64,000 nt of DNA. It comes from an uncultured Desulfarculales bacterium (GTDB lineage Bacteria; Desulfobacterota; Desulfarculia; Desulfarculales; JAHJDS01). The position numbers and the translations under genes are program-made. The notes below the pieces were generated by a model, which worked only from the letters and a program-made list of their open reading frames with translations, was not told the DNA's origin and ran no database searches. Positions 28,500 to 56,855 of this stretch are shown here, one piece after another; position 1 is the stretch's first letter, and each line of letters opens with the position of its first letter. The stretch lies in contig CAZMVB010000001.1 of the NCBI GenBank assembly GCA_964569795.1, positions 195,233-259,232 on the forward strand, written 5' to 3'.

Positions 28500-28575
28500 G
28501 GCGGCATAGCCAAGTGGCTAAGGCAGCGGTCTGCAAAACCGTTATTCACCGGTTCGAATCCGGTTGCCGCCTCCA
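28500..28575 (+). tRNA. tRNA-Cys (anticodon GCA)
   Basis: The acceptor is GGCGGCA/TGCCGCC, the anticodon loop is CTGCAAA, the T-arm is ACCGG-TTCGAAT-CCGGT, and CCA is encoded. Confidence 0.9.
28551..28575 (+). repeat. Direct repeat copy 1 (3' end of tRNA-Cys; attL-like)
   Basis: GGTTCGAATCCGGTTGCCGCCTCCA is identical over 25 nt to 56831-56855. Confidence 0.85.
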
Positions 28576-28721
28576 TTGTTTCGATTAAAATCAATTAAAT
28601 ACTTTTGTGAATTGCCGGGAAACGACCGGGAAAAACCGCGAAAAATCAATGCCCGCTCTCTAGCTTCACCACCTTGTCTTTCCGGTACAATTTAACCAGG
28701 CGCGTCGCATCTGCTCCAGAA

Positions 28722-28872
28722 GGCTTCCCCCGCCCGCGCGGGGATCGACCTTCGAGAGCCCGCTCGATCCTCCCCCTGGTCTGGTTTCCCCCGCCCGCGC
28801 GGGGATCGACCGGTCATCTCCTCGAGGCTGAATTCATTCTGATCGTTTCCCCCGCCCGCGCGGGGATCGACC
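28722..28872 (+). CRISPR. Orphan mini-CRISPR array, type I-E-like repeats (3 repeats, 2 spacers)
   Basis: There are three 29-nt repeats: GGCTTCCCCCGCCCGCGCGGGGATCGACC (28722-28750), GGTTTCC... (28783-28811) and CGTTTCC... (28844-28872). They are separated by unique 32-nt spacers (28751-28782, 28812-28843). The internal palindrome CCCCGC/GCGGGG and the 29/32 geometry match E. coli-type I-E arrays. No cas genes are in the window. Confidence 0.7.
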
Positions 28873-28997
28873 CGTACGACCCGGCTTCGAGGTCCATTTT
28901 TCTTGGCCAATCAAACTCTAGTTCTTATTAAAAGTAACCACAACTGAAAATAATGGCCGATATTTTTTGTATTAGTAAAATCGTGGATGAATTTTTA

Positions 28998-29026
28998 TTG
29001 ACAACAATCAGGGCGTCGAATAAGAT
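28998..29026 (+). promoter_or_regulatory. Sigma-70-type promoter candidate for the XRE-cupin regulator/ort cluster
   Basis: TTGACA-17 nt-TAAGAT in AT-rich DNA, about 80 nt upstream of the ATG at 29108. Confidence 0.35.
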
Positions 29027-29107
29027 GGTACGCATCCTGGTCGGATACGGCCCCTTCCCCCTGTAGCGAGACATCCACGGTACGACGACGTAAGGCAATC
29101 GTTTATT

Positions 29108-29734
29108 ATGCCAAAAAAACGACAGGTTATATCATCTGAGGCGGCCGCGGCCGAAGGCCTTGCACCTGTTTCCACCCTGGAGGTGGTCTCGGAGCGATTG
29201 GGCGCCAAGATCAGACGGATCCGGAACGCCGAGCGTCTGACCCTTTCCGACCTGGGTGAAAAAACTGGTCTGAGCGTCAGCTTCCTGTCCCAGGTGGAAC
29301 GGGACCTCAACGATCCGTCGATCAACTCCATGCGCAAGATCGCCAATGCCCTGGGTTGCCCCCTGACCACCTTTTTCGAGGACCAGTTCCAGTCAGCCGG
29401 GCCGGTGGTCCGCAAGCACGAGCGGCGGGTCCTGTTCAACACCCAGTCCCGCCTGACATATCAGCTTCTATCCCGGTTTCAGGGCGGCCGCATCGAGTTG
29501 CTGATGACCATGCTCGAGCCGGGGACCGCCAACGTGGAGCAGCCCATGTCCCACATCGGCGAGGAGGCGGCCCTGATCATTCAGGGCGAATGTTGGTTCG
29601 AATTGGGAGAGGAAGGGTTCAGCCTCAACGAGGGTGACGCCATCTATATCCACGAAAACAAGGCCCACCGGTTCACCAACACCGGCGCGGAGACCTTGAT
29701 AATCGTGTCGGCCATTTCACCGCCCGGGTTCTGA
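29108..29734 (+). CDS. XRE-family HTH transcriptional regulator with C-terminal cupin domain (PuuR-like architecture)
   Basis: The HTH_3 segment reads LGAKIRRIRNAERLTLSDLGEKTGLSVSFLSQVERD. The cupin segment reads GEEAALIIQGECWFELGEEGFSLNEGDAIYIHENKAHRFTN. Confidence 0.85.
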   Translation: MPKKRQVISSEAAAAEGLAPVSTLEVVSERLGAKIRRIRNAERLTLSDLGEKTGLSVSFLSQVERDLNDPSINSMRKIANALGCPLTTFFEDQFQSAGPVVRKHERRVLFNTQSRLTYQLLSRFQGGRIELLMTMLEPGTANVEQPMSHIGEEAALIIQGECWFELGEEGFSLNEGDAIYIHENKAHRFTNTGAETLIIVSAISPPGF

Positions 29735-29751
29735 ACGACCCACCCGGGGGG

Positions 29752-30093
29752 GTGGGGACGACGGGGGAGATCACGATCGTGAAGGAAGCCTGCCGGGGGG
29801 ACCTGGTCCAGATCCTGTGCGTCGTCCTGGCGCCGGCGGACCGTCCCGAAAACCTCCCGCCGTCCACCCGGGCCGTGCCCTACCAGGCCTGGATCAAGGG
29901 CCTGTTGGTGGACGACCGCGCCCGCGTCGGCGACCAGGTGACCATCGAGACCTCTATCGGCCGACGTCTTTCCGGAAGGCTCCAGGCCGTGAATCCGACC
30001 TATGACCACGGTTTCGGCCGACCCCGGCCGGAACTCCTGCCGGCGGCCGTCCTGGCTCGGCAGTGGCGCTCCGACCCCGGGAGGGAAGGTTAG
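29752..30093 (+). CDS. ortA: 2-amino-4-oxopentanoate thiolase alpha subunit (OrtA)
   Basis: About 110 aa matching my recollection of the OrtA pattern: GD.VQI..VVL.P..R....P..T..VP...W.KG.L...A.VGD.V.IET.IGRR..G.L..VNP.Y.H.FG.P.PELL. It lies immediately upstream of and overlapping an OrtB-like PLP enzyme. Confidence 0.7.
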   Translation: MGTTGEITIVKEACRGDLVQILCVVLAPADRPENLPPSTRAVPYQAWIKGLLVDDRARVGDQVTIETSIGRRLSGRLQAVNPTYDHGFGRPRPELLPAAVLARQWRSDPGREG

Positions 30094-31511
30094 TGGACAC
30101 CGGCTTTCAGGCGGTCATGGCCCGCAAGGGCGACATCCTGCGCCGCACCACGGGGATCGACTACAACGCCTTCGAGTGGTCGCCGCTGGCCTTTGACTAC
30201 GAGGGCCTGATGGCCTCGGGCGGCTACGACGATGACCGCATCAGGGAGTTGCTGGCCGAGACCGGGGTGGGCGACACCCCCCTGGTCGAGCTGAAGAACC
30301 TGACCGGCCTGGTCCGCTCCATCGCCCCGCCCGGCAAGGGAGCCCGCATCTTTGTCAAGGACGAGGCGGCCAATCCCAGCGGCAGTTTCAAGGACCGGCG
30401 GGCGGCCCTGTCGGTCTATCACGCCGCCCGGCTGGGCTTCGAGGGGGTGGTCGCGGCCAGCTCGGGCAACTACGGCGCCGCCGTGGCCTCCCAGGCGGCC
30501 AAGCGCAACCTCAAGTGCATTGTGTTGCAGGAGACCTTTGACAGCCGCAAGAAGGGCCAGCCCGAGATCCTGGAAAAGACCCGGGCCTGCGAGGCCTACG
30601 GGGCCGAGGTCTGGCAACTGACCGTCGGACCGGAGCTGTTCTACATCATGCTCCGGGTCCTGGAGGAGACCGGTTTCTTCGCCGCCTCGCTCTACGTCCC
30701 GACCGCGGTCCAGGGCATCGAGACCCTGGGCCGGGAGCTGGCCGAACAGGTCAAGGAACGGACCGGCCGCTTCCCCGACGTGGTGGCCGTCACCCACGCC
30801 GGCGGGGGCAACGTCACCGGCACGGCCCGGGGCCTGAGCCGGGCCGGCAGCGGGTCAACGGCGGTCATCGGCGTGTCGGTGGACCTCCAGGGCCTGCACA
30901 TGGCCAGCGACGAGGACTTCAATCGCAAGTCGTTCACCACCGGCCATTCCGGTTATGGCATCCCCTTCGCCACCTGGCCGGACCGGACCGACGTGCCGCG
31001 CAACTGCGCCCGGGCCCTGAGGTACCTGGACCGTTATGTGCTGGTCAAACAGGGCGACGTCTTTTTCGTGACCGAGCTCCTGGCCAAGCTGGAGGGCATG
31101 GAGCGCGGGCCGGCGGGCAACACCTCGCTCACCGGGGCGATGGCCATCGCCCAGGAGATGGACCAAGACCAGATCCTGGTGGTTCAGGAGACCGAGTACA
31201 CCGCCGCCGGCAAGCTGCCGTCCTCGCAGCTGACCTTTGCCCAGGAAAACGGAGTCACCGTCCGGACCGGCGATCCGGCCGAGGGCGTGCCCGGCCGGTC
31301 GATCGTCATCCCCGAAAGTCTGGACCAGATCCGGGTCCAGGACTGGGACATGACCGGGCTCCGCCGGTCCTACATCAAAAACGCGTTCCGGGCCGCGGGC
31401 GACCACCAGCCCACCGCCCGGGACTTGGAGTTCCTGGCGGCCGATTCCAAGTCATCGGTCGAGTTCGTCACCTCGACCTGGGAGGAGATCGGCCGGGAAG
31501 GGGCGACCTGA
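30093..31511 (+). CDS. ortB: 2-amino-4-oxopentanoate thiolase beta subunit (OrtB), fold-type II PLP enzyme
   Basis: The PLP-Lys motif is NPSGSFKDRRAA, with a glycine-rich segment VVAASSGNYGAAVA. The size (about 470 aa) and the pairing with ortA fit. The GTG at 30093 overlaps the ortA stop after GGGAGGGAAGG; alternative starts are 30063 and 30117. Confidence 0.75.
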   Translation: MDTGFQAVMARKGDILRRTTGIDYNAFEWSPLAFDYEGLMASGGYDDDRIRELLAETGVGDTPLVELKNLTGLVRSIAPPGKGARIFVKDEAANPSGSFKDRRAALSVYHAARLGFEGVVAASSGNYGAAVASQAAKRNLKCIVLQETFDSRKKGQPEILEKTRACEAYGAEVWQLTVGPELFYIMLRVLEETGFFAASLYVPTAVQGIETLGRELAEQVKERTGRFPDVVAVTHAGGGNVTGTARGLSRAGSGSTAVIGVSVDLQGLHMASDEDFNRKSFTTGHSGYGIPFATWPDRTDVPRNCARALRYLDRYVLVKQGDVFFVTELLAKLEGMERGPAGNTSLTGAMAIAQEMDQDQILVVQETEYTAAGKLPSSQLTFAQENGVTVRTGDPAEGVPGRSIVIPESLDQIRVQDWDMTGLRRSYIKNAFRAAGDHQPTARDLEFLAADSKSSVEFVTSTWEEIGREGAT

Positions 31512-31584
31512 CCCGGCGCGGTCCGGACAGATGCCTGATGGCCGCCCGAGGACAACCACCGACACCCGACCGGGGGAAGGGGCC

Positions 31585-32019
31585 ATGAGCGACCAGATCA
31601 AAACGGTTGACCAGTTCTTCACCGCCATGAACCGGTACGACGTCCCGGGCATGGCCGCCCTGCTGGCCGATGACGTCGTCGCCTGGGAGGTGGCCGAGGC
31701 CGAGGCCTGCCGCGGCCGGGACGCGTTTGCCAAATCCTACACCGAGCTGTTCATTGGCTACCCCGACTGCCGGTGCGAAATCCTGGAAAGGCACGACGCC
31801 GGCCGGGACGTGATCTACGAGGTCCGCTGGGCGGCGACCAACACCGGCGTTTACAAGGGCGTGCCCCCGACCGGCAAACCGGTCGAGCTCCGGATCGCCT
31901 ATTTCTTCAAGTTCGAGGGCGACCGGATCGCCCGGATCACCGAGTACTACGATCTGGCCACCCTGCTCGTCCAGCAGGGCCAGCTTCTAACACCCAACGG
32001 CCAGGGGAGTCAGGCATGA
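31585..32019 (+). CDS. SnoaL-like / ester-cyclase-like NTF2-fold protein
   Basis: VDQFFTAMNRYDVPGMAALLADDVV...GVPPTGKPVELRIAYFFKFEGDRIARITEYYD is typical of the SnoaL polyketide-cyclase-like family. The ATG follows GGGGGAAGGGG. Confidence 0.7.
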   Translation: MSDQIKTVDQFFTAMNRYDVPGMAALLADDVVAWEVAEAEACRGRDAFAKSYTELFIGYPDCRCEILERHDAGRDVIYEVRWAATNTGVYKGVPPTGKPVELRIAYFFKFEGDRIARITEYYDLATLLVQQGQLLTPNGQGSQA

Positions 32020-33284
32020 TCTCGGCCACGGAATGGGAAATCCTGCGGGAAATAAAAAGTCGGCGGGCCCTGGAGCATATCGAGAGACTGTGCGCCTTGG
32101 GCGACCGGTTCGTGGGGACCGAGGGCGACCGGAAGGCGATCGACTATGTCCGGCGCCATTTCGAGCGATGCGGCCTGGAGATCAAGGAGACGCCGATCAC
32201 CGCGCCGTGCTTCATCGAGGAAAGTCCGCCGACCCTCCGGATCGAGGCCACGGGCCAGACCCTGACCGGCCTGTCCCCCTATCTCGGCCCGCCGACGCCC
32301 AAGGGCGGCGTCACCGGCGACGTGGTCGAAGTGGGCGAGGGGACGGAGGCCGACTTCGAGGGGATCGACGTGGACGGCAAGATCTGCCTCCTGATCGAAA
32401 AGGGGCTGGGGTATCTCAAGTTCTGGCTGGGAACCCTGGCCCAGCGGGCCGCCCGGCGCGGGGCCGTGGGCCTGATCGTGATCCATCCCATGCCCTGGCC
32501 CTACCGCAATTCCATGGAGGCCGGCAACAGCCACGTCGCCGATCGCTTCTGCTATCCCCAGCTCCCGGCCATGACCCTCTCGGCCGTGGAGGGGGCCAGG
32601 TTGATGTATGAACTGGGTCAGGGCCACACCCGGGTCCACCTGGAGGTCCACACCCTGATCGAGGAGCGCGACAGCCTGATCGTCTCCGGCGTCAAGAAGG
32701 GCGGCGAGTTCCCCGACGAGCGGGCGGCCATCCTGGGACACCGGGACACCGCCGTCCCGCCCGGGGCCAACGACAACACCAGCGGCACGGCCTGCGTGCT
32801 CACCCTGGCCGAGGTCCTGAGCGGGCGGGACTCCCGCCGGGGCTTCGAGTTCATCTCGTCCACGGCCGAGGACGGGGCCACCCTGGGGGCCTACCTCTAC
32901 TGCCAGGCGCATAAAGAAGAACTGCAGCGGAACATGAAGTGCCTGATCGACACGGACATGATCAGCGTCGGCGGCCAGATCAAGCAGGTCGCCAAGGGGC
33001 TGTGGCCCGACGCCGACCCGGTTCACGCCACGGGATGGCTGATGGACCTGGTCGATGAGGTGGCCGAGGACCTGGGCTACTACTTCGGCCGAATGGAGGC
33101 CGCCTGGGGCGTGGCCGAGAGCGCCCGGTTCCTGGACATCGGCGTGCCGTCCACCTGGTTCTGGGCCCCGGACGACCCCTATTACCACTCCACCGAGGAC
33201 AGCCCGGACAAGATCAACCCCAACAGCCTCAAGGCGGTGATGGACGTCTCGGCGGTGGTCATGTGGCGGCTGGCCCAGGAGTAG
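32016..33284 (+). CDS. M28-family metallopeptidase with PA domain
   Basis: ATGA overlap with the upstream gene. The PA-domain-like segment is GDVVEVGEGTEADFEGIDVDGKICLL. The M28 zinc motif is ILGHRDTAVPPGANDNTSG. The usual EE pair reads AED here. Confidence 0.8.
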   Translation: MISATEWEILREIKSRRALEHIERLCALGDRFVGTEGDRKAIDYVRRHFERCGLEIKETPITAPCFIEESPPTLRIEATGQTLTGLSPYLGPPTPKGGVTGDVVEVGEGTEADFEGIDVDGKICLLIEKGLGYLKFWLGTLAQRAARRGAVGLIVIHPMPWPYRNSMEAGNSHVADRFCYPQLPAMTLSAVEGARLMYELGQGHTRVHLEVHTLIEERDSLIVSGVKKGGEFPDERAAILGHRDTAVPPGANDNTSGTACVLTLAEVLSGRDSRRGFEFISSTAEDGATLGAYLYCQAHKEELQRNMKCLIDTDMISVGGQIKQVAKGLWPDADPVHATGWLMDLVDEVAEDLGYYFGRMEAAWGVAESARFLDIGVPSTWFWAPDDPYYHSTEDSPDKINPNSLKAVMDVSAVVMWRLAQE

Positions 33285-33349
33285 GCCGGGTCCGACGGAG
33301 GACGGGGGCGACCTCCGGGACCTGAAGAAAAACTTGCACGGGGGCGGGG

Positions 33350-34990
33350 ATGTTTTCCCTCCTCATTAAAAACGTCAAGCTGGTGGACGGCCGGGGCAAT
33401 CCCTGGCAATGGGCCGACGTCGGGCTCGACGGCCCGATCGTCGCCGCCGTGGGCCGCCTGGAAGAGGCCGAGGCCGAGCGGGTGATCGACGGCCAGGGAC
33501 GGGTGCTGGCCCCTGGATTCATCGACATGCACTCCCACGCCGACCTGGTCTTTCTGAGCGAGCGCCAGACCGAGCTGTTGGAGGGCCGGATCCGGCAGGG
33601 AATCACCACCGAGATCGTGGGCAACTGCGGCATCGGCCTGGCCCCGATCAAGGATCAGGACAAGTCGGCCTACGCCGCCAGCGTGGGCTGGATGACGCCG
33701 GAGACGGTCCCCTGGACCTGGAACAGCACGGCCGACTACCTCGACGCCCTGGAGGCCAAGGGGGTCCCGATCAACGTCGGCACCCTGACCGGCCACGGCG
33801 CGATCCGCTGCCTGGCCAAGGGCTTCGCCGGCGGCCTGGCCCTGTCCGCGGAACTCGAGGTCATGACCCAGGCCCTGGCCCGCAGTCTGGAGCAGGGCTC
33901 CTTTGGTCTGTCCAACGGCCTGATCTACCCGCCGGGCATGTTCGCCGACACCGCCGAGTTCATCGAGCTGGGCCGGGTGGTGGCCCATTACGACCGGCTG
34001 CTGACCAGCCACGTCCGGGGATCGAGCGAGACCGACGTCGAGGCCGAGGGGGAACTGATCACCATCGGCCGGGAGGCCGGCTGCCGGGTCCACCGCTCCC
34101 ACAACGAGGTCGTGGGCCGCGACCACTGGCCCAAGATCGAGACGACCCTGAAAATGGACGAGGAGGCCCGGCGGCAAGGGGTGGACATCGCCTTTGACAT
34201 GTTCCCCTACACCGCGGCGATGACGATGATGGTCGCCATCTACCCGCCCTGGACCCTGGACGGCGGCTGGGATCGGTTTTTGGAAAGGGTCCAGGACCCG
34301 GCCACCCGGTCCCGCATGGAGCGGGACATCGAGACAATGGTGCCCCGGTGGCCGACCTGGCTCCCGGGCTCCTGGCCCCACAACCTGGTCAAGGCCTGCG
34401 GCTGGGACCTGATCCACATCGGCTACATCCCCAGCCAAAGGAACAAGGAGTTCGAGGGGCTGAACCTGGCCGAACTGGGCCGGCGTCTGGGCAAGTCCCC
34501 CTTTGACGCCATCACCGACCTGATGATCGAGGAACAGGGGGCCATCAGCCAGCTCATCTTCGGGGTGTCCGGCGACCGCCAGACCGAGGAGGCCCTCAAA
34601 AAGATCATGACCCACCGTCTGGGCGGCTTTGCCACCGACGCCGTGGACATCGGTCAGGGCCGGCCCCACCCGGCGTCCTACGGCACTTTTCCGCGGATCC
34701 TGGGCCGCTACGTCCGGGAACTGGGGCTGCTCGGCCTGGAGGACGCCGTCCGCCGGATGACCTCCTTCCCGGCGGCCCGGCTGGGGATCAAGGACCGGGG
34801 CGCGGTCGCCGTGGGGTACCAGGCCGACCTGGTGCTCTTCGATCCGGAGACCATCGCCGACCGGGCGACCTACGAGGAGCCCCGGCAATTCCCGGTGGGT
34901 CTGGACTACGTCATCGTCAACGGCCAGGTCCTGGTGGAAGGAGACCGCCTCCATCCCATCCGGCCGGGCCGGGTGTTGCGCAAAACCTAG
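33350..34990 (+). CDS. N-acyl-D-amino-acid deacylase (D-aminoacylase) family amidohydrolase
   Basis: IKNVKLVDGRG...VLAPGFIDMHSHADL (HxH metal motif), 546 aa, and the D-aminoacylase-type C-terminus ADLVLFDPETIADRATYEEP...G...V.VNG. Confidence 0.8.
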   Translation: MFSLLIKNVKLVDGRGNPWQWADVGLDGPIVAAVGRLEEAEAERVIDGQGRVLAPGFIDMHSHADLVFLSERQTELLEGRIRQGITTEIVGNCGIGLAPIKDQDKSAYAASVGWMTPETVPWTWNSTADYLDALEAKGVPINVGTLTGHGAIRCLAKGFAGGLALSAELEVMTQALARSLEQGSFGLSNGLIYPPGMFADTAEFIELGRVVAHYDRLLTSHVRGSSETDVEAEGELITIGREAGCRVHRSHNEVVGRDHWPKIETTLKMDEEARRQGVDIAFDMFPYTAAMTMMVAIYPPWTLDGGWDRFLERVQDPATRSRMERDIETMVPRWPTWLPGSWPHNLVKACGWDLIHIGYIPSQRNKEFEGLNLAELGRRLGKSPFDAITDLMIEEQGAISQLIFGVSGDRQTEEALKKIMTHRLGGFATDAVDIGQGRPHPASYGTFPRILGRYVRELGLLGLEDAVRRMTSFPAARLGIKDRGAVAVGYQADLVLFDPETIADRATYEEPRQFPVGLDYVIVNGQVLVEGDRLHPIRPGRVLRKT

Positions 34991-35037
34991 CGCCCTCGCC
35001 CGAAACCGGCGGGGGACAAACTGAACGGGGGAAAGCC

Positions 35038-35874
35038 ATGACAGCCAGTGATGCGGTCCTGACGAACCCGATCTTCGAGGCCATCAACCGGGTGGGCCAG
35101 TCGCCCCAGGAGGCGATCCACGTCTGGGGGCAGGGCCTGGCCGTCCACCACGGCAACCTGCTGGCCGGCCTGGACGCCAACGTGGACCGGGCCGAGGTCC
35201 GCCAGGCGATCCTGAGAGACATCTGGAAGTTCGTCCAGTCCCAGGGTCTGACCGCGGTCAATGACGGTCTGGGGCTCACGGCCGAGCCGGATCTGGACGC
35301 CCTGAACGCGCTCATGGCCGCAATCCTGGCCGACGCCGGGCACCCCAAATTGACCGGCCTGGGGGCGGACGTCAACGAGTCCCTGGTCAACTGGGTCAAG
35401 GCCTTCACCCTGTACGACTGGGCGGCCTACACCTATCTCGAAAAACACCTGGGCTCGAAAGAGGGCCTCAAGATCTACATGGGGCTGTGGGAGTCCTTCG
35501 CCCTGGGCGTCCTGCCGGACATGAAGGCGGCCCTGGGCATCACCAGCGCCGAGGACCTGGACATGGCCATGATCAAGACCCTGTCCGAGCACTACTGGGC
35601 GGCCATCGGCTGCGCCAGCAACACCACCCGGTTCGACGACAACGTGTACGAGGCCGAACTGAGCGACTGCGCCTACTGGCTGAATATGAAGGACATGCTG
35701 GGCGAGGACCTGTCCCGGTCCATGACCCTCAAGACCGAGGCGGCGGTGTCGGTCAACTACTACGACGCCATCCTCAAGGCCCTGGGCGTCTTTGACCGGT
35801 ACTCGTTCACCATGGACCGGTTCCAGTGCTGCGGCGACGACCACTGCCGGGTCCGGTTCGAGCGCCGCGGCTAG
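35038..35874 (+). CDS. Uncharacterised protein, paralog A of a Cys-motif family (ATC-hydrolase-like?)
   Basis: Coding-like composition. The C-terminal half aligns by eye with ORF 37591-38193 (FTLYDW../FTLHDF.., DMAMIK/DDLIK, SDCAYW/TDCPYT, QCCGDDHCRVRFERR/QLCRTNDACEFTYRRK). Confidence 0.6.
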   Translation: MTASDAVLTNPIFEAINRVGQSPQEAIHVWGQGLAVHHGNLLAGLDANVDRAEVRQAILRDIWKFVQSQGLTAVNDGLGLTAEPDLDALNALMAAILADAGHPKLTGLGADVNESLVNWVKAFTLYDWAAYTYLEKHLGSKEGLKIYMGLWESFALGVLPDMKAALGITSAEDLDMAMIKTLSEHYWAAIGCASNTTRFDDNVYEAELSDCAYWLNMKDMLGEDLSRSMTLKTEAAVSVNYYDAILKALGVFDRYSFTMDRFQCCGDDHCRVRFERRG

Positions 35875-35925
35875 AAACGTCCGACCCCCGGGGCGGTCGG
35901 AGCGCTGACAAGGAGGGCGGGATTC

Positions 35926-36414
35926 ATGGCTTCCATCCTGATCATCTATCAGTCCCAGACGGGAAACACCCGGGCCATGGCCGAGGCGATCGAGGCCGGC
36001 GTCCGGGACGAGGGCGTGGACGTCGTCCGCAAGGACATCGCCGCGGCCAGCATCGACGACCTGCCTGACTTCGACGGCGTGATCATCGGATCGCCGACCT
36101 ATTTCGCCGCGACCACGGCCGAGGTCAAGCGGTTCATCGACGACAGCATCAAGTATTACAAAAAACTTGACGGCAAGGTGGGCGCCGCCTTCACCTCCTG
36201 CGGCGATCTGGGGGGCGGCGGGGAGACGGCCATCCTGGACATCCTGCGGTCCTTCCTCGTTCACGGCATGCTCGTCCCCGGGTACGTCGAGGGCGGCCAC
36301 TATGGTCCGGTGTCGGTCGGACATCCGGACGAGGAACGAAAACAAGTCTGCCGGTCATTCGGGTCCCGAGTGGCCCGGGTGGTCAAGGCCGTGGCCGGCG
36401 TGGTGACCGTTTGA
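35926..36414 (+). CDS. Flavodoxin-fold FMN protein (flavodoxin/WrbA-like)
   Basis: ILIIYQSQTGNTRAMAEAI...VIIGSPTYFAATTAEVKRFID is a classic flavodoxin FMN-binding pattern. Confidence 0.85.
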   Translation: MASILIIYQSQTGNTRAMAEAIEAGVRDEGVDVVRKDIAAASIDDLPDFDGVIIGSPTYFAATTAEVKRFIDDSIKYYKKLDGKVGAAFTSCGDLGGGGETAILDILRSFLVHGMLVPGYVEGGHYGPVSVGHPDEERKQVCRSFGSRVARVVKAVAGVVTV

Positions 36415-36434
36415 GGGCGGCCCGGGGGTGAACC

Positions 36435-37538: not shown

Positions 37539-37590
37539 GCCCGTCCGGGCCGGGAGAATTTGGAAACAACTCTTTTCAGGGAGGCAAGTC

Positions 37591-46290: not shown

Positions 46291-46306
46291 GGGCCCGCGG
46301 CCGCAG

Positions 46307-48493: not shown

Positions 48494-48517
48494 CGTAATA
48501 CCTTTCGGCCAACGCCT

Positions 48518-49642: not shown

Positions 49643-49728
49643 CGGTTTGCTCCTGAACAAAAAGAGCCTGAGATCGCTCTTGGTTGTCTTCCTGGGTCAG
49701 GTCTTGATTCACGCCGGGTGACCTCCTG

Positions 49729-50316
49729 TTAGTGTAAAAAGGGGATCCGGAAGAAGAGGAACCAGCCGTTGACCAGCAGCAGGCATCCCCCGCCGGCCAT
49801 GGCCATGGCCATGATGAAGAACCGACCCGAGGCGGCGATCATGGCGATGGAGGCCAGGATGATGGCGATCTGGAGGAAGACCTGGCTGTAGTCGAGATAG
49901 GGGTCCCGGTCCTGTCCCAGGGCCAGCAGTCTTTCCTGGGCCCGGGCGTCCTTCATGATCTTGGCCTTCTCGGCCTTGAAGCGCCCCACCTCGGCCTTCA
50001 TCCGGGCCACGCGGTCCACCAGGCGCCTTTTGGCCTCGGGGGTCATGGTCCCCCCGCGCTCGACCAGGCTCAGTTCCATCAGGCCGGTCAGCGAGGCGTA
50101 AAGGTGCTGGCGGATGGTCTTGGCCTGGTAGTAGGCCCACTGGTTCGAGGCCCTCTGCTGGGCCAGCATGATTTCCTTGGTGTTGTTGCCGCCGACCAGG
50201 GCGGCGATGGACAGCAGCACGGCAAAGACAGCCGTGGTCAGACCGACCCGCTTGGTGAACGGGCTGACGCCCTTGTCCGCGTGCCTGTCCGGTTCGGGCA
50301 GTTCCATATCGACCAT
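49729..50316 (-). CDS. DUF4337-like membrane protein
   Basis: It has a TM segment (GLTTAVFAVLLSIAALVGG), a coiled region (NQWAYYQAKTIRQ...) and a C-terminal TM pair. This matches my recollection of the DUF4337 architecture. Confidence 0.65.
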   Translation of the reverse strand: MVDMELPEPDRHADKGVSPFTKRVGLTTAVFAVLLSIAALVGGNNTKEIMLAQQRASNQWAYYQAKTIRQHLYASLTGLMELSLVERGGTMTPEAKRRLVDRVARMKAEVGRFKAEKAKIMKDARAQERLLALGQDRDPYLDYSQVFLQIAIILASIAMIAASGRFFIMAMAMAGGGCLLLVNGWFLFFRIPFLH

Positions 50317-50372
50317 GTCTCGTGTCGCTCCGAATCATCTCCGCCCGGAAACTCGTCCCGGCCGGCTGCGGT

Positions 50373-50918
50373 TCAGTTCAGGCGGCCGACCCGTTCTGAC
50401 CGCTCGGCCGCGGCTTTTCTCCGGGAAACGCCCACCACCTTGACGAAGATGACCTTGTCGTCCTCGGGGGCGTAAAAGTCCTCGAGGCGGGCCGTCTCGA
50501 CGTATCCCCGCCCCTCGTAGAAACCCCGGGTCGGCGCGTACTTGGGGCCGGACGAGGTATCGACGTAGATCCGGCGCCCTCCGGCCTTGATCACCCGCCG
50601 CTCGACCTCGGCCAGCAGCAGGCGACCGATGCCCTGGCCCCTCAGGTTCCGCCAGACCACGATCCAGTACAGGTCCCAACTGCTGGCCGTGGCGGGAATG
50701 GGACCGTAACAGGCGTAACCCAAGGGGGAGTCGTCCAGTTCGGCGAACAGGAAATGGTAACCGCTGTCCAGCCCCTTGGCCAGGCGCTCCTCGACCAGTT
50801 GGCCGGCGATCTCGACCTCTTCCCGGTGGAAAAAGCCGGAGCCGGCACACATCCGCCGCACCAGGTCCGGGTCGGTCGCCTTGACCCGGTCGCGCCAGGT
50901 TAGTTTGGAACGCCGCAC
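50373..50918 (-). CDS. GNAT-family N-acetyltransferase
   Basis: The acetyl-CoA motif A is WRNLRGQGIGRLLLAEVERR. The GTG at 50918 lies 14 nt after the upstream stop. The longer track ORF (to 51284) overlaps the upstream gene out of frame. Confidence 0.75.
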   Translation of the reverse strand: MRRSKLTWRDRVKATDPDLVRRMCAGSGFFHREEVEIAGQLVEERLAKGLDSGYHFLFAELDDSPLGYACYGPIPATASSWDLYWIVVWRNLRGQGIGRLLLAEVERRVIKAGGRRIYVDTSSGPKYAPTRGFYEGRGYVETARLEDFYAPEDDKVIFVKVVGVSRRKAAAERSERVGRLN

Positions 50919-50932
50919 CCCAGCCCCCTGAC

Positions 50933-52021
50933 TCAGGCCGTGACCGACCGCTCGTCCGGCCGCGGCCCGGTCCCGAGGGCCGCCGGTAACGGCCAGGCTT
51001 CGGTCCGGCCCCGGCGGCCGGGACCGGGCCGGTTGGCGTCGGCCATGATCCGGGACAGCACCTGGGCCGGGGACAGGCCGGCCCGCTGGGCGGCGGCCAT
51101 GAAGCCGGCCTCGGCCTCGAGACAGGGATTGGCGTTGGCCTCGAGGATAAAGGGGCGGCCGTCCGTATCCACCCGGAAGTCGATCCGGGCCCAGCCCCGA
51201 AAACCGAAGCAGCGCCAGGCCGCCAGGCTCAAGTCGGTCAGGGTCTGAAGCAGGGCCCGGTCGCCCTCGGGAAAATCGAAGCAACGTCGGGTGTGCCGGT
51301 ACTCAAAGGAATTTTCAACCCACTTGGCCCGGTAACCGACCACCCGGGGCCGGTCGGGACCATAGCCCTCGAACTCGATCTCGGCCGGGGGCAGCGCCTC
51401 GGGGCCGGTCTCGGTGGCCAGAAGGGACAGGTTGAATTCCCGGCCGGGGACAAACGCCTCGGCAAAGTAACGGACGCCCGTGACGTGAAAGAGGTCCTGG
51501 AGCCGCTCCCGGATTTGATCCGGGTCGTCGCCCGGGACCACCGAGTCGTCGTCCAGGCCCCTGGAGCCGTGCTCCCAGACCGACTTGATGATGTATTGGG
51601 AGGCCGGGGGTTCCGGCGAGATGAAACAGCGGTCGTCGAGCCACCCCGGGGTGGGCAGGCCGGCCCGGCAAAGGGCCGCCTTGGCCGCCAGCTTGTCCGA
51701 GGACAGGGCCATGGCCCGTCCGTCGGCCCCGGTGAAGGCCAGACCCAGGGTGGCCAGCAACTCGGGCGGCCGGTGGATCAGGCGTTCCTCTCCCCAGGGG
51801 GCCTCGACCAGATTGAAGACCAGGTCCGGGGCGGAGTTGATCAGCCGGCTCAGCGCGGCGGTCGATCCGGACCAGGCCGCCCGTTCCACCCGATGCCCCA
51901 GGTCCGCCAGGAGGCGGGACACCTGGTCGGCCTGGACCAGGTTGTCCTGCCGGTCCGGATCCAGGGTCACCCCGGGCGGGTCGTGGAGGACCACGATCTT
52001 CATGGTCGCCGTCTCCGTCAT
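50933..52021 (-). CDS. Ddl-like ATP-grasp ligase 2
   Basis: MKIVVLHD..., SSDKLAAKAALCRAGLPTP, YIIKSVWEHGSRGL, and WARIDFRVDTDGRPFILEANANP. The ATG at 52021 overlaps the upstream stop (ATGA). Confidence 0.8.
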   Translation of the reverse strand: MTETATMKIVVLHDPPGVTLDPDRQDNLVQADQVSRLLADLGHRVERAAWSGSTAALSRLINSAPDLVFNLVEAPWGEERLIHRPPELLATLGLAFTGADGRAMALSSDKLAAKAALCRAGLPTPGWLDDRCFISPEPPASQYIIKSVWEHGSRGLDDDSVVPGDDPDQIRERLQDLFHVTGVRYFAEAFVPGREFNLSLLATETGPEALPPAEIEFEGYGPDRPRVVGYRAKWVENSFEYRHTRRCFDFPEGDRALLQTLTDLSLAAWRCFGFRGWARIDFRVDTDGRPFILEANANPCLEAEAGFMAAAQRAGLSPAQVLSRIMADANRPGPGRRGRTEAWPLPAALGTGPRPDERSVTA

Positions 52022-53052
52022 GAGGACCCCAGGGCCGCCCGAAAGGGGCCTGTCCCCGTCCGCGGCCAGGTCCGGTCGAGCCCGGCGCGCTTGCGGGCGG
52101 AGCGGACGATCCGGTCGATCAGCTCGGAAAAAGATATCCCGGCCAGACCGCACAGGATCGGCAGGTCCGAGTGATGGGGGTGCAGGCCGGCCAGGGGGTT
52201 GATCTCCAGGAAGTGGGGCCGGCCCGATTTGTCCAGGCGGATATCAACCCGGCCGGCGTCCCGGCAGCCGAGGCCGCGGTAAACCGCCAGGGCCAGGGCG
52301 GCGATGTCCCGGCCCTCGGCCCGGCCGGCCAGCCGGTAGCTGACCCGGTGCTCGCTCTCTTCCTTGTTGACGAACGAGTACACCCCCGGTTCGGCCCCCG
52401 GCCCCAGGAGGACCTCCATCACCCCCACCACCTCGGCCCGGGCCCCGGTGCCGACGATCCCGACGGTGAACTCCCGGCCCGGCAGAAAGGTCTCGACCAG
52501 GACCGGCTGGCGATAGGCGGCCAGCAGGTCGCGGCAGGCCCGCACCAGGGCGGCCCGGTCCATCAGGCGCGAGCCCGGGCCGATGCCCTTGCCCGTGCCC
52601 TCGGCCACGGGCTTGGCGAACAGGGGGAAGGGCAGATCGATCTCGGGGGCCTCCTCGATGGAGCTGACCACCGCGAAATCGGGCGTGGGCAGACCCAGGT
52701 CCCGGACCACCCGCTTGGCCATGCCCTTGTGCAGGGTCAGGGTCAGCACCAGCGGATCGGAAAAGGTGTAAGGCAGACCAAAAGCCTCGAGCAGGCAGGG
52801 CACCTGGGCCTCCCGCCCGTAGCCGGACACGCCCTCGGCGATGTTGAACACCAGGTCCCAGCGCCGGCCCTCGGCCAGACGCTCCACCAGGCGCGGCAGG
52901 CGGCCGATCCGCTCGGGCTGATGGCCCAGGCCGGCCAGGGTCTCCTCCAGGGCGGCGACGGTCTCCTCAGAGTCGAATTCAGCCACCTCTTCGGGGCCGA
53001 AGCCGGCCGCCCGGTAGTCATCCCGCAGGTCATAGGTCAGGCCGATGTGCAT
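52018..53052 (-). CDS. Ddl-like ATP-grasp ligase 1
   Basis: TLHKGMAKRVVRDLGLPTP, FPLFAKPVAEGTGKGI, and AGRVDIRLDKSGRPHFLEINPLAGL. Confidence 0.8.
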   Translation of the reverse strand: MHIGLTYDLRDDYRAAGFGPEEVAEFDSEETVAALEETLAGLGHQPERIGRLPRLVERLAEGRRWDLVFNIAEGVSGYGREAQVPCLLEAFGLPYTFSDPLVLTLTLHKGMAKRVVRDLGLPTPDFAVVSSIEEAPEIDLPFPLFAKPVAEGTGKGIGPGSRLMDRAALVRACRDLLAAYRQPVLVETFLPGREFTVGIVGTGARAEVVGVMEVLLGPGAEPGVYSFVNKEESEHRVSYRLAGRAEGRDIAALALAVYRGLGCRDAGRVDIRLDKSGRPHFLEINPLAGLHPHHSDLPILCGLAGISFSELIDRIVRSARKRAGLDRTWPRTGTGPFRAALGSS

Positions 53053-53065
53053 CTGACACCTCGGA

Positions 53066-54406
53066 TCATGAGCACCCGGCGCCGGTGTCCGGGTAGAGGT
53101 AGAGATCGTCCCGGAAGTTGCGGAGGATCAGGTTGCCTCCGTCCCGGCCGGCCACCGCCTCGGGACAGAGGGCCACCTTGCCGCCCCCGCCCGGGGCGTC
53201 GATGACATAGGTCGGCACGGCGTAGCCGCTGATGTGGCCCCGCAGGCCCTGGATGATCTCGAGCCCCTTGGCCACCGCGGTCCGGAAGTGGGCCGAGCCG
53301 GAGATGGGGTCGCACTGGTACAGGTAGTAGGGTCGGACCCGCATCCGGAGCAACCCCCGCATCAACTCGGCCATGGTAGCCACGTCGTCGTTCACCCCGG
53401 CCAGGAGCACCGTCTGGCTGCCCAGGGGGATGCCGGCGTTGGCCAGACGGGCGCAGGCCGCCGCCGCCTCGGGGGTCAGTTCCAGGGGATGGGTGAAGTG
53501 GAGGCTCATGAACAGGGGGTGGTAGCGCTTGAGCATCCGGACCAGACCGGTGGTGATCCGCTGGGGCAGCACGGCCGGGACCTTGGTCCCCAGGCGGATG
53601 ATCTCGACGTGCTTGATTTGGCGGAGACGGGCCAGGATCCACTCCAGGTTGCGGTTGCTCAGGGTGAGCGGATCGCCGCCCGAGACGACCACGTCACGGA
53701 TCTGCGGCGTGGCCTCGATGTAGGCCAGGGCCGCCTCGAGGCGGCGCCGGCCGCTGTGCCCCCCGCCGTGCCCGCCCACCAGGCGCGAGCGGGTGCAGTA
53801 GCGGCAGTAGGTCGAACAGAACCGGGTGACCAGCAGCAGGACCCGGTCCGGATAGCGATGGACCAGCCCCGGGGCGACCTCGTCCGCCGACTCGCCCAGG
53901 GGGTCGTCGGCCTCGCCCGGGCCGACCACGGACTCGGCAGTAACCGGCACGACGCACCGCCGGATGGGGTGCCCCGGGTCGTCGGGGTCGATCAGACTGA
54001 GGTAGTAAGGCGTGACCGCCATGGGCAGCCTCCGCTCCCCCCCGGAAAAGGCCTGGGCCTCCTCCGGGGTCAGCCGAATCATCGGATCGAGTCGTCCCGG
54101 ACCGGTCACCCGATGGCGGAGCTGCCACCGCCAGTCGTTCCAGTCGGCCCGGGTGCTGTCCGGGAAAAACCGCTGGTAAAAGGCCTTGGCCCGCTGGTTG
54201 ACGATGATGCCGTTGGTCTGCTTGACGGCTTCGAGTCTGGCCCTCGATCGGACGGGATCATCGTCCGTCTCCAGGGGAACGGCCAGGGTCAGCGCCCCTC
54301 GGGAGGGAGGTTTGTCTTCCTCGGTCGAGGATTCCCCTCTGTCCCCCAGGGGCGCGGCGCCGGCCGCCGCCTCGCTTCGGGCCGCCAAGCGGTCTTTCCG
54401 GGTCAT
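53066..54406 (-). CDS. kamA: Lysine 2,3-aminomutase (radical SAM/PLP)
   Basis: CSTYCRYCTR radical-SAM cluster, SGGDPL, GVNDD, YYLYQCDPISGSAHFR and YVIDAPGGGGK (both lysine-epsilon-binding Asp positions and the PLP Lys context). The ATG at 54406 lies 5-6 nt after GGAGG. Confidence 0.9.
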   Translation of the reverse strand: MTRKDRLAARSEAAAGAAPLGDRGESSTEEDKPPSRGALTLAVPLETDDDPVRSRARLEAVKQTNGIIVNQRAKAFYQRFFPDSTRADWNDWRWQLRHRVTGPGRLDPMIRLTPEEAQAFSGGERRLPMAVTPYYLSLIDPDDPGHPIRRCVVPVTAESVVGPGEADDPLGESADEVAPGLVHRYPDRVLLLVTRFCSTYCRYCTRSRLVGGHGGGHSGRRRLEAALAYIEATPQIRDVVVSGGDPLTLSNRNLEWILARLRQIKHVEIIRLGTKVPAVLPQRITTGLVRMLKRYHPLFMSLHFTHPLELTPEAAAACARLANAGIPLGSQTVLLAGVNDDVATMAELMRGLLRMRVRPYYLYQCDPISGSAHFRTAVAKGLEIIQGLRGHISGYAVPTYVIDAPGGGGKVALCPEAVAGRDGGNLILRNFRDDLYLYPDTGAGCS

Positions 54407-54459
54407 TTTCACCTCCAAACTCAAGTTGGGTTCATTCCTGCCCTCCGGGCGGCCGGTCC

Positions 54460-54726
54460 TCAATCCAGGAGCCGGTAGCCTTCCACCCGGATCAATCCCT
54501 CACCCCGGGCCGAACGCCTCCGCCGGCCCGTGACCATCACCTCGCGCCCGACCAGGTGGTCGATCCCTTTGGCCGAACCGGACGTCTCGACCCGGTACTC
54601 CTGTTCGTCAAAGGTGGACAGGACCACGCCAATCACCCGCCCGTCCCGATCCCACTCCACGGGGATGATCAGGCCGCGGATCTCGATCCGCTCGCCACCG
54701 TCGGACTCGGTTCGGGTCACGTCCAC
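54460..54726 (-). CDS. Small (88 aa) hypothetical protein, first gene of the sigma-54 operon
   Basis: An open frame with a GTG start about 70 nt downstream of the predicted sigma-54 start site. It is beta-rich and charged and ends ...RVEGYRLLD. I recognise no family. Confidence 0.45.
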   Translation of the reverse strand: MDVTRTESDGGERIEIRGLIIPVEWDRDGRVIGVVLSTFDEQEYRVETSGSAKGIDHLVGREVMVTGRRRRSARGEGLIRVEGYRLLD

Positions 54727-54804
54727 CTCTCGGCCAGGGCGGTCAATGATTACCTGGCCCTCAGCGGCCCCAAGGGGCCCCGCTGATGGCCCGCGCCCTG
54801 TAAT

Positions 54805-54820
54805 GGCAACGGCCGTGCCA
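54805..54820 (-). promoter_or_regulatory. Sigma-54 (-24/-12) promoter
   Basis: The minus strand reads TGGCACGGCCGTTGCC, which matches TGGCACG-N4-TTGCW at every position except the last. It lies about 80 nt upstream of the first ORF and downstream of an EBP gene and palindromic sites. Confidence 0.75.
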
Positions 54821-54873
54821 TATTTTTAATTTATTGTTTTAATTGAATAAATTTAAAGCAAGCGGCCAGTTCA

Positions 54874-54888
54874 GGAACTACGAGTTCC
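54874..54888. promoter_or_regulatory. Palindromic upstream activator site A (GGAAC-N5-GTTCC)
   Basis: GGAACTACGAGTTCC followed by GAT, about 55-70 nt upstream of the -24 element. Confidence 0.55.
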
Positions 54889-54977
54889 GATATCAGATCG
54901 AAAAGGCAGACAGGGCCGGGCCATGGCGGGAGTCTTTTTGGACAACTTATTGAATTTACATTAACTTATTAAATTTG

Positions 54978-54992
54978 CGAACCGGAAGTTCC
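54978..54992. promoter_or_regulatory. Palindromic upstream activator site B
   Basis: CGAACCGGAAGTTCC followed by GAT, preceded by the AT-rich module TTACATTAACTTATTAAATTTG. Confidence 0.55.
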
Positions 54993-55007
54993 GATTAAAC
55001 GCGACTC

Positions 55008-55022
55008 AGAACTCAGAGTTCC
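55008..55022. promoter_or_regulatory. Palindromic upstream activator site C
   Basis: AGAACTCAGAGTTCC followed by GGT. Confidence 0.5.
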
Positions 55023-55062
55023 GGTTTGACAGCCATGGATTGACATTAATTTATTAAATATA

Positions 55063-55077
55063 CGAATGAGAAGTTCC
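55063..55077. promoter_or_regulatory. Palindromic upstream activator site D
   Basis: CGAATGAGAAGTTCC followed by GAT, preceded by the AT-rich module TTGACATTAATTTATTAAATATA, which is nearly identical to the module before site B. Confidence 0.5.
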
Positions 55078-55123
55078 GATCAATGACGATTCAGAAGGCG
55101 GGTTTCGATTTAATAACCATTGG

Positions 55124-56572
55124 CTACTTATAATCCTCCTTGCGCAGCCCATGCCTGGTCATCAGTTTGTGGAGTTGCCGGGTGGTCACGCCGGCGGCCC
55201 GGGCACTCTTGTCGATGCGGCCCTGGTTGGCGGTCAAGATCGACTGGAGGTATTGGCGCTCGATCAGTTCCAGGCCGCGGCGGCGGACCTCGGCCAGGGG
55301 CGGGGCGGCCGGGGTCTCGCCCGGGGGCGGGAGGGACCGGGTGGCCAGGAGCTCGACCGGGACCACGTCCACGGTCAGGACCGGTGAGTTGGCCAGGATG
55401 TAGGCCCGCTCGATGATGTTTTCCAGTTCGCGGATGTTGCCCGGCCAGTAGTATCCGGTCAGGGCGGCCATGAGTTCGCTTTGCACGCCCTTGATGTTCT
55501 TGCCGTAGGTCCGGTTGAGCCGCCCCAGGAGGCCCTCGACCAAAAGGGGGACGTCCTCGGTCCGGTCCCGCAGGGCGGGCAGGTCGATGGGGAAGACGTT
55601 GAGCCGGTAAAAAAGGTCCCGCCGGAACAGACCCTTGTCGCAGAGGTCGGCCAGGTCCTGGTTGGTGGCGGCCACGATCCGGACGTCCACCTCGATGGGG
55701 ATCTCGCCGCCGACCCGGCTGAATTGCTTTTCCTGAAGGACCTCGAGGAGGCGGATCTGGGTGGCCGGACTGACGGTGCCGATCTCGTCCAGGAAGATGG
55801 TCCCCCCCTGGGCGATCTCGAACTTGCCCAGCTTGCGCTTGACGGCGCCGGTGAAGGCGCCCTTTTCATGGCCGAAGAGTTCGCTTTCGATCAGGGTCTC
55901 GGCCATGGCCCCGCAGTGCACGGCGATGAAGGGTCCCTCGGCCCGGTGGCTCAGGCCGTGGATGACCTTGGCCATCAGGCTCTTGCCGGTCCCGGTTTCA
56001 CCGGTGAGCAGGACCGTGGTCTTGGTCCTGGCCACCGACTTGATCTTGTCCAGGGCCGACTTCATGGCCGGGGAGTCGGTCCGCATCCCCCGGAACAGGT
56101 CGCCCCGCCACGAATTCTCCCGGAGGTGGGCCAGTTCGGACTCGATCTGCCGCCACTCGGACAGGCTGTCGATGACAAAGCCGATCTCGGCCGGATCCAC
56201 GGGATAGGTCAGATATTCGCTGGCCCCGGCCCTGACGGCGGTCACCGCCCGCCGGATCTGGGCCTGGTCGGACATGACGATGATCGGGGCGGTGGCGTAG
56301 GCCTCCCAGTAGGGCTGCAGGGCCTGGGTGTAGTCGGCCCGGCCGTCGCGGTTCGGGCCGCTCTCCAGAAACGATAGGTCGATGAAGGTGTACTCGTACC
56401 TCTTGCGCCTGAACGTCTCCAGGCAGGCCTCCCTGGTGGCGGCCAGATCGACCTTGAATTCGCGGTCGAAGTGGGCCCGGATGATCTCGGCCGCCTCGTG
56501 GTTGGTCGTGCCCAGCAGAATTGACTTCAAGACCGCACCCGGTGTTCGTTTTGGGGCAAGTCTAGACCACAC
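55124..56572 (-). CDS. Sigma-54-dependent transcriptional activator (NtrC-type EBP) with atypical receiver domain
   Basis: The AAA+ core has [15 protein letters not shown] (Walker A), the GAFTGA loop (EKGAFTGAV) and [10 protein letters not shown]. The C-terminal Fis-type HTH is [21 protein letters not shown]. The N-terminal ~120 aa are receiver-like. GTG start after GGAAGAGG. Confidence 0.9.
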
Positions 56573-56830
56573 CCTCTTCCTGGCGCAATTTTTTTAGTCG
56601 CCGGCCGAGGACCTGTCGGGTGAAGTTAAGTCGGGCGAAGGGGGAAGACAACCGGAGGCCGCCACCTATTTTTCGCGGAGGCGCTGCTGGGCGCCTGCGA
56701 CCGGGCCTGGCTGGTCCTGGGCTTCGCCACCTCCGCCGCCCAGGTGGGGCCCTGATCCGGTTTGACCGGGAAACGCACAGAATATCTTTTAAAATACCAA
56801 AAACAACAAAATGTTATATGGATGTTAAGT

Positions 56831-56855
56831 GGTTCGAATCCGGTTGCCGCCTCCA
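56831..56855 (+). repeat. Direct repeat copy 2: orphan 3' fragment of tRNA-Cys (attR-like)
   Basis: GGTTCGAATCCGGTTGCCGCCTCCA is identical to 28551-28575. No upstream tRNA body is present, and it is preceded by AT-rich DNA. Confidence 0.85.

Follow-up and report, generated by a model that had tools for sequence, protein, structure and literature searches.

The locus described here lies in a 64,000-nucleotide stretch of DNA from an uncultured Desulfarculales bacterium (contig CAZMVB010000001.1 of assembly GCA_964569795.1, forward-strand positions 195,233 to 259,232). This whole 64-kb stretch is called the window, and all positions refer to it unless another contig is named. A tRNA-Gly gene is followed closely by an intact tRNA-Cys gene, and ARAGORN and Rfam detect no further tRNA gene in the window. 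The 3′ end of tRNA-Cys, the 25-mer GGTTCGAATCCGGTTGCCGCCTCCA, occurs in two exact copies, one inside the gene and one as an orphan, both on the + strand. The interval that they bracket (28576-56855; 28,280 bp with one repeat copy counted) is the putative genomic island examined here. It carries a small CRISPR (clustered regularly interspaced short palindromic repeats) array and two blocks of cargo genes, termed modules 1 and 2, with a transporter gene between them (Table 1).

Table 1. Features of the tRNA-Cys locus and the DNA between the two 25-nt repeat copies
Feature	Position	Strand	Evidence or remark
tRNA-Gly(GCC)	28421-28495	+	Host gene just upstream of the target; ARAGORN; Rfam 71.9 bits; kept in L002 and L133
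tRNA-Cys(GCA), intact, probable integration target	28500-28575	+	ARAGORN; Rfam 68.5 bits
attL core, first 25-nt repeat copy	28551-28575	+	L133 homology ends at 28575; L220 junction
Island left arm, AT-rich, non-coding	28576-28722	+	GC 0.45; presumed former attP arm; absent from L133 and L002
Mini-CRISPR array	28723-28872	+	Three 28-nt repeats GTTTCCCCCGCCCGCGCGGGGATCGACC, two 33-nt spacers, 61-nt period
Cargo module 1 (OrtAB/aminoacylase/Liv)	29108-42854	+	Pfam; OrtB equivalog NF040741, 765 bits
Junction between modules	42855-43541	.	GC 0.595; no family match; only ORF 97 aa, 43268-43561, - strand
MFS transporter	43542-44807	+	Pfam MFS_1, 1.1e-47
Cargo module 2	44749-56572	-	Pfam and NCBIfam; sigma-54 activator at 55124-56572
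Island right arm, non-coding (258 bp)	56573-56830	+	GC 0.41 in 56740-56830, next to the core
attR core, orphan second repeat copy	56831-56855	+	L133 homology resumes at 56831; L013 junction
Original DNA downstream of tRNA-Cys (attB right flank), displaced 28.3 kb	56856-57132	+	L133 alignment
Host flank, RRM RNA-binding protein	57133-57405	-	Pfam; syntenic in L002, L133 and L013
Host flank, PAP2 phosphatase	57664-58275	-	Pfam; syntenic in L002, L133 and L013

The repeat corresponds to positions 52-76 of the tRNA: it takes in the final 2 nt on the 5′ strand of the T-stem, passes through the T-loop and the 3′ strands of T-stem and acceptor, and closes with the discriminator and CCA. The first junction reads TTCACC, the 25-mer, and TTGTTTCG; the second reads TTAAGT, the 25-mer, and CCCGGGGGG. 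Because the surroundings of the two copies differ at once on either side, the repeat is exactly 25 nt long. No third site with three or fewer mismatches exists in the window, so there is no visible tandem accretion. Two other origins of the repeat were rejected: chance, as none of 100 dinucleotide-preserving shuffles of the window held a match to the 25-mer (chance expectation, 0), and target duplication by a transposon, as the repeat coincides with the tRNA end and is accompanied by neither terminal inverted repeats nor a transposase.

At the second copy, ARAGORN found no tRNA, and Rfam returned none in 56500-57200, even at E ≤ 1. ARAGORN, Rfam, and exact-match searching thus agree with a preliminary description of this DNA, which had pointed to an exact 25-bp duplication of the tRNA-Cys 3′ end whose second copy lacks a tRNA body. 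The 51-nt stretch upstream of the orphan copy (56780-56830) agrees with the tRNA-Cys body at 20 of 51 positions, slightly above random (mean of 13.3 and sd of 3.1 in the null distribution; P = 0.026 relative to every 51-mer in the window). Had the tRNA-Cys gene been duplicated locally, with a remnant as the second copy and ordinary chromosome in between, such a match might have been left. The matching positions are scattered, and we regard the similarity as marginal and not as homology; it could be chance or a faint, extended resemblance between attP and the tRNA.

A search with the VWA protein of the right flank led to a relative in which the site is empty. This 35.6-kb contig (L133; Joint Genome Institute [JGI] metagenome 3300057049) is ~92% identical to the window in the flanks. 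Its gene order is transaldolase, pgsA, tRNA-Gly, tRNA-Cys, 328 bp, RRM, PAP2, VWA, CBS, and SSF, and it holds a single copy of the 25-mer. In blastn alignments, L133 1-8291 corresponded to window 20288-28575 (92.5% identity), L133 8267-8318 to window 56831-56882 (92%), and L133 8526-15410 to window 57034-64000 (86-87%). Homology therefore ends at the last base of tRNA-Cys and restarts with the orphan copy's first base. The sequence CCCGGGGGGCTGAATTTCCTGGGGCC that follows the orphan copy is orthologous to CCCCGGGGGCTGAATTGTCGGGGGCC, which directly follows the intact tRNA-Cys in L133, and the TTGTTTCGATTAAAATC that follows tRNA-Cys in the window has no counterpart there. The arrangement for which the preliminary description had proposed to search relatives, pgsA-tRNA-Gly-tRNA-Cys and then the RRM and PAP2 genes, is thus present in L133, with homology breaking exactly at the repeats. 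Orthology between the DNA after the orphan copy and the DNA after the single tRNA-Cys of L133 is predicted by integration and not by duplication of a tRNA gene, and the 28 kb are absent from two relatives, L133 and a second one described below. We consider a local tRNA duplication highly improbable. The preliminary description had named two circumstances that would tell against an island, the presence of the 28 kb in all relatives and a second copy that belongs to a degraded tRNA-Cys gene; neither applies, the latter by ARAGORN, Rfam, and the L133 alignment.

The second relative, L002 (JGI 3300039093), is more distant than L133. It aligns colinearly with the window to the left and right of the site (87% and 78-86% nucleotide identity), contains the 25-mer once, and is also without the 28 kb. 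Between its tRNA-Cys and RRM genes lies an unrelated 2.57-kb insert (L002 10763-13336) encoding a HAMP-domain adenylate/guanylate cyclase and a 129-aa secreted protein. Because this insert sits at exactly the same point after tRNA-Cys and has no tRNA-end repeat, the site is a hotspot for variable DNA in the clade. The tRNA-Cys sequence itself is identical in the window, L002, L133, and the host of an IMG/VR prophage considered below. Relatives are scarce: only three PgsA proteins exceeded 60% identity among 5.8 billion proteins; a PgsA search of a genome-contig collection returned no relative, the lineage being absent there or too distant; and close relatives of the island-flanking genes came from about 3-5 genomes or metagenomes in the searches run. 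Short contigs from other relatives (L003, L218, and L219) stop before the informative region.

A chimeric join at a short repeat could mimic this structure in a metagenome-derived contig, and short-read contigs do break at the repeat: one (L220) starts 6 nt before it, and another (L001) ends in tRNA-Gly. Logan contigs of run SRR14802574, an independent assembly of the same sample, nevertheless span both junctions and include diagnostic bases to the left and right of the repeat. L220 contains attL; it starts with TTCACC, the 25-mer, and TTGTTTCGATT and runs through the CRISPR array into the genes for the helix-turn-helix (HTH)-cupin regulator and OrtA. L013 contains attR; at 100% identity to the window, it extends from the RRM flank across the orphan copy into the sigma-54 activator gene. 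The probability of an assembly artefact is very small.

These data support the reading of the repeats as attL and attR sites, left by integration into the 3′ end of tRNA-Cys. The empty site of L133 and the orthologous flank after attR bear out the signature of site-specific integration that had been noted at the outset. We conclude that 28576-56855 is very probably a tRNA-Cys(GCA) genomic island formed by tyrosine-integrase-type recombination, consisting of cargo only and non-autonomous. Tyrosine integrases are the only family known to target tRNA genes (tDNAs) (PMC4383910). In such an event, an attP borne by the element, with an identical 25-nt core, would have recombined conservatively with the chromosomal tRNA-Cys, the crossover falling within the last 25 nt of the gene, from T-loop to CCA. 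At the left end, an intact tRNA-Cys would have been rebuilt with its last 25 nt now from the island side (attL: host 5′ tRNA, core, and element arm). At the right end, the original 25 nt and the native downstream DNA would have been pushed out (attR: element arm, core, and original downstream DNA). The agent would have been a tyrosine integrase, and its absence today would reflect either deletion of the integration module after insertion or an integrase that was always supplied in trans, as for cis-mobilizable elements (CIMEs).

Every sizeable open reading frame (ORF) between the repeats was annotated with Pfam and NCBIfam. All island ORFs with a family match encode metabolic, transport, regulatory, or DUF proteins, and no recombinase, excisionase, relaxase, secretion, or phage domain was found in island ORFs; ORFs 35038-35874, 37591-38193, and 43268-43561 have no annotation. 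Six-frame translations of the gaps at 28576-29107, 42855-43541, 54727-55123, and 56573-57132 gave no Pfam match at E ≤ 10. The island is thus integrase-less, as first described, both in its ORFs and in the translated gaps, and the proposed hunt for integrase pseudogenes in 28576-29100, 42855-43560, and 56573-56830 by six-frame Pfam and tblastn yielded no trace. When two tRNA-Cys integrases were compared with the window by tblastn, the sole match was ORF 11576-12508, outside the island. By NCBIfam, this ORF is a housekeeping xerC/xerD-type gene (324.7 bits to XerC, just under the 335-bit cut-off); it adjoins hslU (region 11576-14411), has no relation to the island, and is the only tyrosine recombinase gene of the window. 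Having no recombinase, the island is non-autonomous and cannot move by itself. It has no structural, replication, or lysis genes of the kind that mark a prophage, and neither the integrase nor the relaxase, type IV secretion system, or both, of an integrative and conjugative element (ICE) or integrative mobilizable element (IME).

The 25-mer is a widespread tRNA-Cys 3′ end, present at no fewer than 119 loci in species-representative genomes, mostly in Bacillaceae and Thermodesulfobacteriota-type metagenome-assembled genomes (MAGs). On IMGVR_UViG_3300009685_000791 (L009/L012), a 16.6-kb contig, tRNA-Gly and a full tRNA-Cys identical to that of the window stand at one end, a 49-nt orphan 3′ fragment lies ~16.4 kb off, and a 364-aa Phage_integrase gene ends 24 bp from the fragment. 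The repeat of this prophage-like element, 49 nt with ~45 nt of imperfect continuation into the terminator hairpin, is a far longer identity than that of the window. On IMGVR_UViG_3300005573_000321 (L011), an integrase gene ends ~50 bp from a 28-nt orphan (T-stem to CCA). In Syntrophaceae UBA4054 (L037), an integrase 48% identical to that of IMGVR_UViG_3300009685_000791 is encoded directly upstream of the orphan fragment, and at loci L025 and L020 integrases adjoin intact tRNA-Cys. Its place at the ends of elements with integrases, in other genomes and viral contigs, marks the 25-mer as an att core in use, of the T-stem/junction class.

The precedents with an orphan fragment (L011, L037, and IMGVR_UViG_3300009685_000791) resemble the window in their tRNA-Cys core, in the orphan 3′ fragment downstream of the tRNA, and in the AT-rich DNA at the core. 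They differ from it in having a Phage_integrase gene just inside the element, beside the fragment and ending 24-50 bp from it; the matching place in the window (56573-56830) holds 258 bp of non-coding DNA and then the divergent activator gene. Two of the precedents have an anticodon-loop-type block of 45-51 nt, and only L011 is of the T-stem type like the window. Their arms contain no sequence similar to those of the window.

The arms of attP sites are usually AT-rich and non-coding. GC content is 0.45 in the left arm here and 0.41 in the core-proximal part of the right arm (56740-56830), against 0.66 overall, in line with the AT-rich DNA that had been placed just inside both repeats. The motif GACCGGGAAA, found ~50-60 bp inside both ends, was considered as an arm-type site and rejected: a 10-mer shared by two 150-bp segments has a P of ~0.10, in a window that is G+C-rich. 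The left arm, the right arm, and the junction at 42855-43541 showed no meaningful homology to any of the loci retrieved.

Sublocation classes of tRNA attachment sites were reportedly set out by Williams in 2002. Islander (Hudson, Lau, and Williams 2015; PMC4383910) maps islands by an intact tDNA that is followed downstream by a 3′ fragment on the same strand, and it demands an integrase gene inside the candidate. Like Islander islands, the island described here has an intact tDNA at one end, a displaced direct 3′ fragment at the other (28,280 bp downstream and correctly oriented), nucleotide-precise ends, a typical size, and a presence/absence polymorphism. Unlike them, it has no integrase inside, and the Islander pipeline would drop it. 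Its identity block, which runs from T-stem to CCA (25 nt; 28 nt in L011), corresponds to the T-loop/junction ('J') class, to which 1836 of 3919 Islander islands belong, 2083 of 3919 being anticodon-centred (PMC4383910).

CIMEs are defined by intact attL and attR sites and the absence of integration and transfer genes (PMC6323972, ICEberg 2.0). The island resembles CIMEs such as CIMEL3catR3 of Streptococcus thermophilus in its intact attL and attR cores, in having no integration or conjugation genes, and in that a cognate integrase class occurs elsewhere. It differs from CIMEL3catR3-type CIMEs in that no related ICE or helper was identified; it also differs in its location in a tRNA gene, in its host, an uncultured deltaproteobacterium-like lineage, and in its cargo of two large metabolic operons. 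ICEclc, at tRNA-Gly, and the Mesorhizobium symbiosis island, at tRNA-Phe, are ICEs that transmit themselves and encode an integrase, an excisionase, and conjugation functions. In both, as in the present island, the cargo is catabolic or biosynthetic, sits at a tRNA 3′ end, and is bounded by a short direct repeat of that end; their integrase, excisionase, and conjugation genes have no equivalent here. The Mesorhizobium island is cited in PMC4383910.

The island may be past moving, or it could still be a mobilisable, CIME-like element served by an integrase from a tRNA-Cys-specific prophage or ICE elsewhere, possibly after tandem accretion. There are natural integrases that act on this very core, the two 25-nt cores of the island are perfect, and the AT-rich arms have been kept; a perfect 25-mer is, however, expected by chance at this divergence with an estimated P of ~0.3. 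One close relative has an empty site, with cargo genes still present in its metagenome, and by sequence the island has the features by which CIMEs are defined (PMC6323972). On the other side, no helper element is visible in the 64-kb window, no arm-type sites were detected, and the island has neither an origin of transfer (oriT) nor a relaxase. We judge continued mobility rather improbable and a decayed or fixed state more likely.

The cargo begins with module 1, which encodes in its first part an HTH-cupin regulator, OrtA, OrtB, a SnoaL-like protein, an M28 peptidase, and a D-aminoacylase-like amidohydrolase, and in the remainder a 278-aa protein without family assignment, a flavodoxin, alanine dehydrogenase, a DUF6125 protein, and a LivKHMGF ABC transporter. 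The classical ort ornithine racemase, D-ornithine aminomutase, and 2,4-diaminopentanoate dehydrogenase are not part of the cluster. Module 1 is a conserved cluster of ~14 genes that recurs, in several gene orders and with OrtB identities of 60-75%, on dozens of JGI sediment and groundwater contigs (loci L138-L217). At least 13 other metagenome contigs have 10 or more of 15 genes each and ~30 have five or more. No tRNA-Cys was found near the module on these contigs, and tblastn with the two tRNA-Cys integrases gave matches in L175 and L202 only.

Module 2 encodes the sigma-54 activator, a DUF5818 protein, a KamA-family aminomutase, two ATP-grasp ligases, a GNAT acetyltransferase, a DUF4337 protein, a second, short or truncated KamA-like protein, a 728-aa ATP-grasp fusion, and a gamma-glutamyltranspeptidase (GGT). 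The gene content listed earlier stands under Pfam and NCBIfam annotation, except that the GNAT acetyltransferase (~50373-50930, - strand) had been overlooked. The window contains one match to a -24/-12 site, TGGCACGGCCGTTGCC (54805-54820, - strand), ~80 bp upstream of the DUF5818 gene. Three TCGGAACT-containing repeats lie at ~54890-55096, two of them 61-nt copies (54951-55011 and 55036-55096). The cassette of activator, 88-aa protein, KamA, and two ATP-grasp genes recurs in L004. The activator/KamA/ATP-grasp core is kept elsewhere, and KamA-ATP-grasp fusion proteins exist (L004; P0152, P0208, and P0222). The gene content suggests that the predicted product is a beta-amino-acid peptide or an acetylated compatible solute.

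Each module is conserved separately in other genomes, and the two were never together in the other contigs examined; the cargo is therefore composite, a possibility already raised in the preliminary description. The region between module 1 and the transporter gene may be left over from the joining of the modules; its 97-aa ORF has no match in Pfam or NCBIfam (PHROGs not searched).

Several observations weigh against the island interpretation or against its direction. The composition is that of the core: G+C is 0.660 inside and 0.660 outside, the tetranucleotide correlation is 0.996, and every 4-kb segment falls within the core range, so that there is no compositional sign of foreign origin. 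(The description of G+C as host-like except around 42.9-43.5 kb was accurate, the dip reaching 0.595 at 42855-43541.) Cargo proteins are ~90-94% identical in related environmental genomes, roughly the divergence of the core. On a 19,530-bp JGI contig, KamA, the activator, and an ATP-grasp ligase (P0252, P0258, and P0291) are 92.2%, 91.9%, and 90.1% identical to those of the island. The amidohydrolase (89-92%) and LivH (92-94%) have relatives on JGI contigs of 130,825 bp (P0272 and P0275), 21,971 bp, and 5,209 bp and in two 'Proteobacteria bacterium' MAGs. For comparison, two core proteins of L133 are 94 and 98% identical to those of the window. None of the PgsA and VWA homologs listed is on a contig of 19,530 or 130,825 bp, so that in one relative at least module 1 seems to have other surroundings. 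Only one genome with an empty site was found, so that gain in the present lineage and precise loss in the lineage of L133 are indistinguishable from it. No significant arm-type repeats were detected, and the enzyme we infer from the scar only, there being neither an integrase nor a trace of one.

The polarity could accordingly be the reverse, with the island ancestral at tRNA-Cys and later precisely excised from the L133 lineage, restoring attB. The host-like composition and the 90-94% relatives of the cargo proteins would fit this, as would a 2-kb contig (L221; JGI 3300057049 Ga0568864_0210127) from the metagenome of L133 itself: its alanine dehydrogenase is 91.3% identical to that of the island, and its flavodoxin-alanine dehydrogenase-DUF6125 segment matches window 36045-38057 at 91.6% nucleotide identity, compared with 92.5% for the core. 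L221 is, however, not linkable to the tRNA-Cys locus, and the absence of the 131-kb module 1 contig among the listed pgsA and VWA homologs points to another location. Since L002 also lacks the island, two losses would be needed in place of one gain, and precise excision requires an integrase, which the island does not encode. We hold ancestral presence followed by excision to be possible, if unlikely. Parsimony over ((window, L133), L002) mildly favours gain, and the island is missing from a relative, L133, that is only ~8% diverged. With cargo genes of ~92% nucleotide identity in the metagenome of that relative, these comparisons do not establish the label 'old' that the preliminary description gave to the island. 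The island may have been gained here from a related donor of similar composition; alternatively, the modules may sit elsewhere in relatives and have been captured into an integrative element here.

The mini-CRISPR lies within the island, 147 bp from attL, and the AT-rich left arm occupies the position of a leader. Its repeats have identical cores with a type I-E-like stem-loop (6-bp stem and 4-nt loop) and are the sole copies in the window. Of the traits of type I-E-like arrays (28-29-nt repeats with a 3′ stem-loop, spacers of ~32-33 nt, an AT-rich leader, and associated cas genes), the repeat length, the 61-nt period, the stem-loop, and the AT-rich upstream DNA are present, in an array of three repeats only. 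No cas genes were found among the annotated ORFs (29 in or beside the island and 14 elsewhere; ORFs in 15349-27012 and beyond 60144 were not scanned), the repeat and both spacers had no exact match in IMG/VR, and the array had no Rfam match. Conceivably, the island is a still-active hitchhiker that uses a tRNA-Cys integrase from elsewhere, and its mini-CRISPR, expressed with the attL arm as putative leader and loaded onto a type I-E system of the host, excludes competitors for the same site. We regard this as a long shot. If true, it would make the island a metabolic CIME with a built-in inter-element defence in an uncultured anaerobe lineage.

An integrase-less tRNA island is of a well-known kind, and the present one, although unusually cleanly mapped, leaves current ideas on island origin unchallenged. 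Because it has no integrase and a host-like composition, finders that require an integrase and those that rely on composition would both miss it; it was revealed only by the tDNA-fragment signature together with comparison with a relative. The island-borne mini-CRISPR at attL, the OrtAB-type cluster, and the sigma-54 KamA/ATP-grasp/GNAT operon may merit separate study. The result is a nucleotide-precise tRNA-Cys island in a poorly sampled, uncultured lineage, whose flexible gene pool includes an uncharacterised OrtAB-type amino-acid catabolic cluster and a sigma-54-controlled beta-amino-acid/ATP-grasp cluster.

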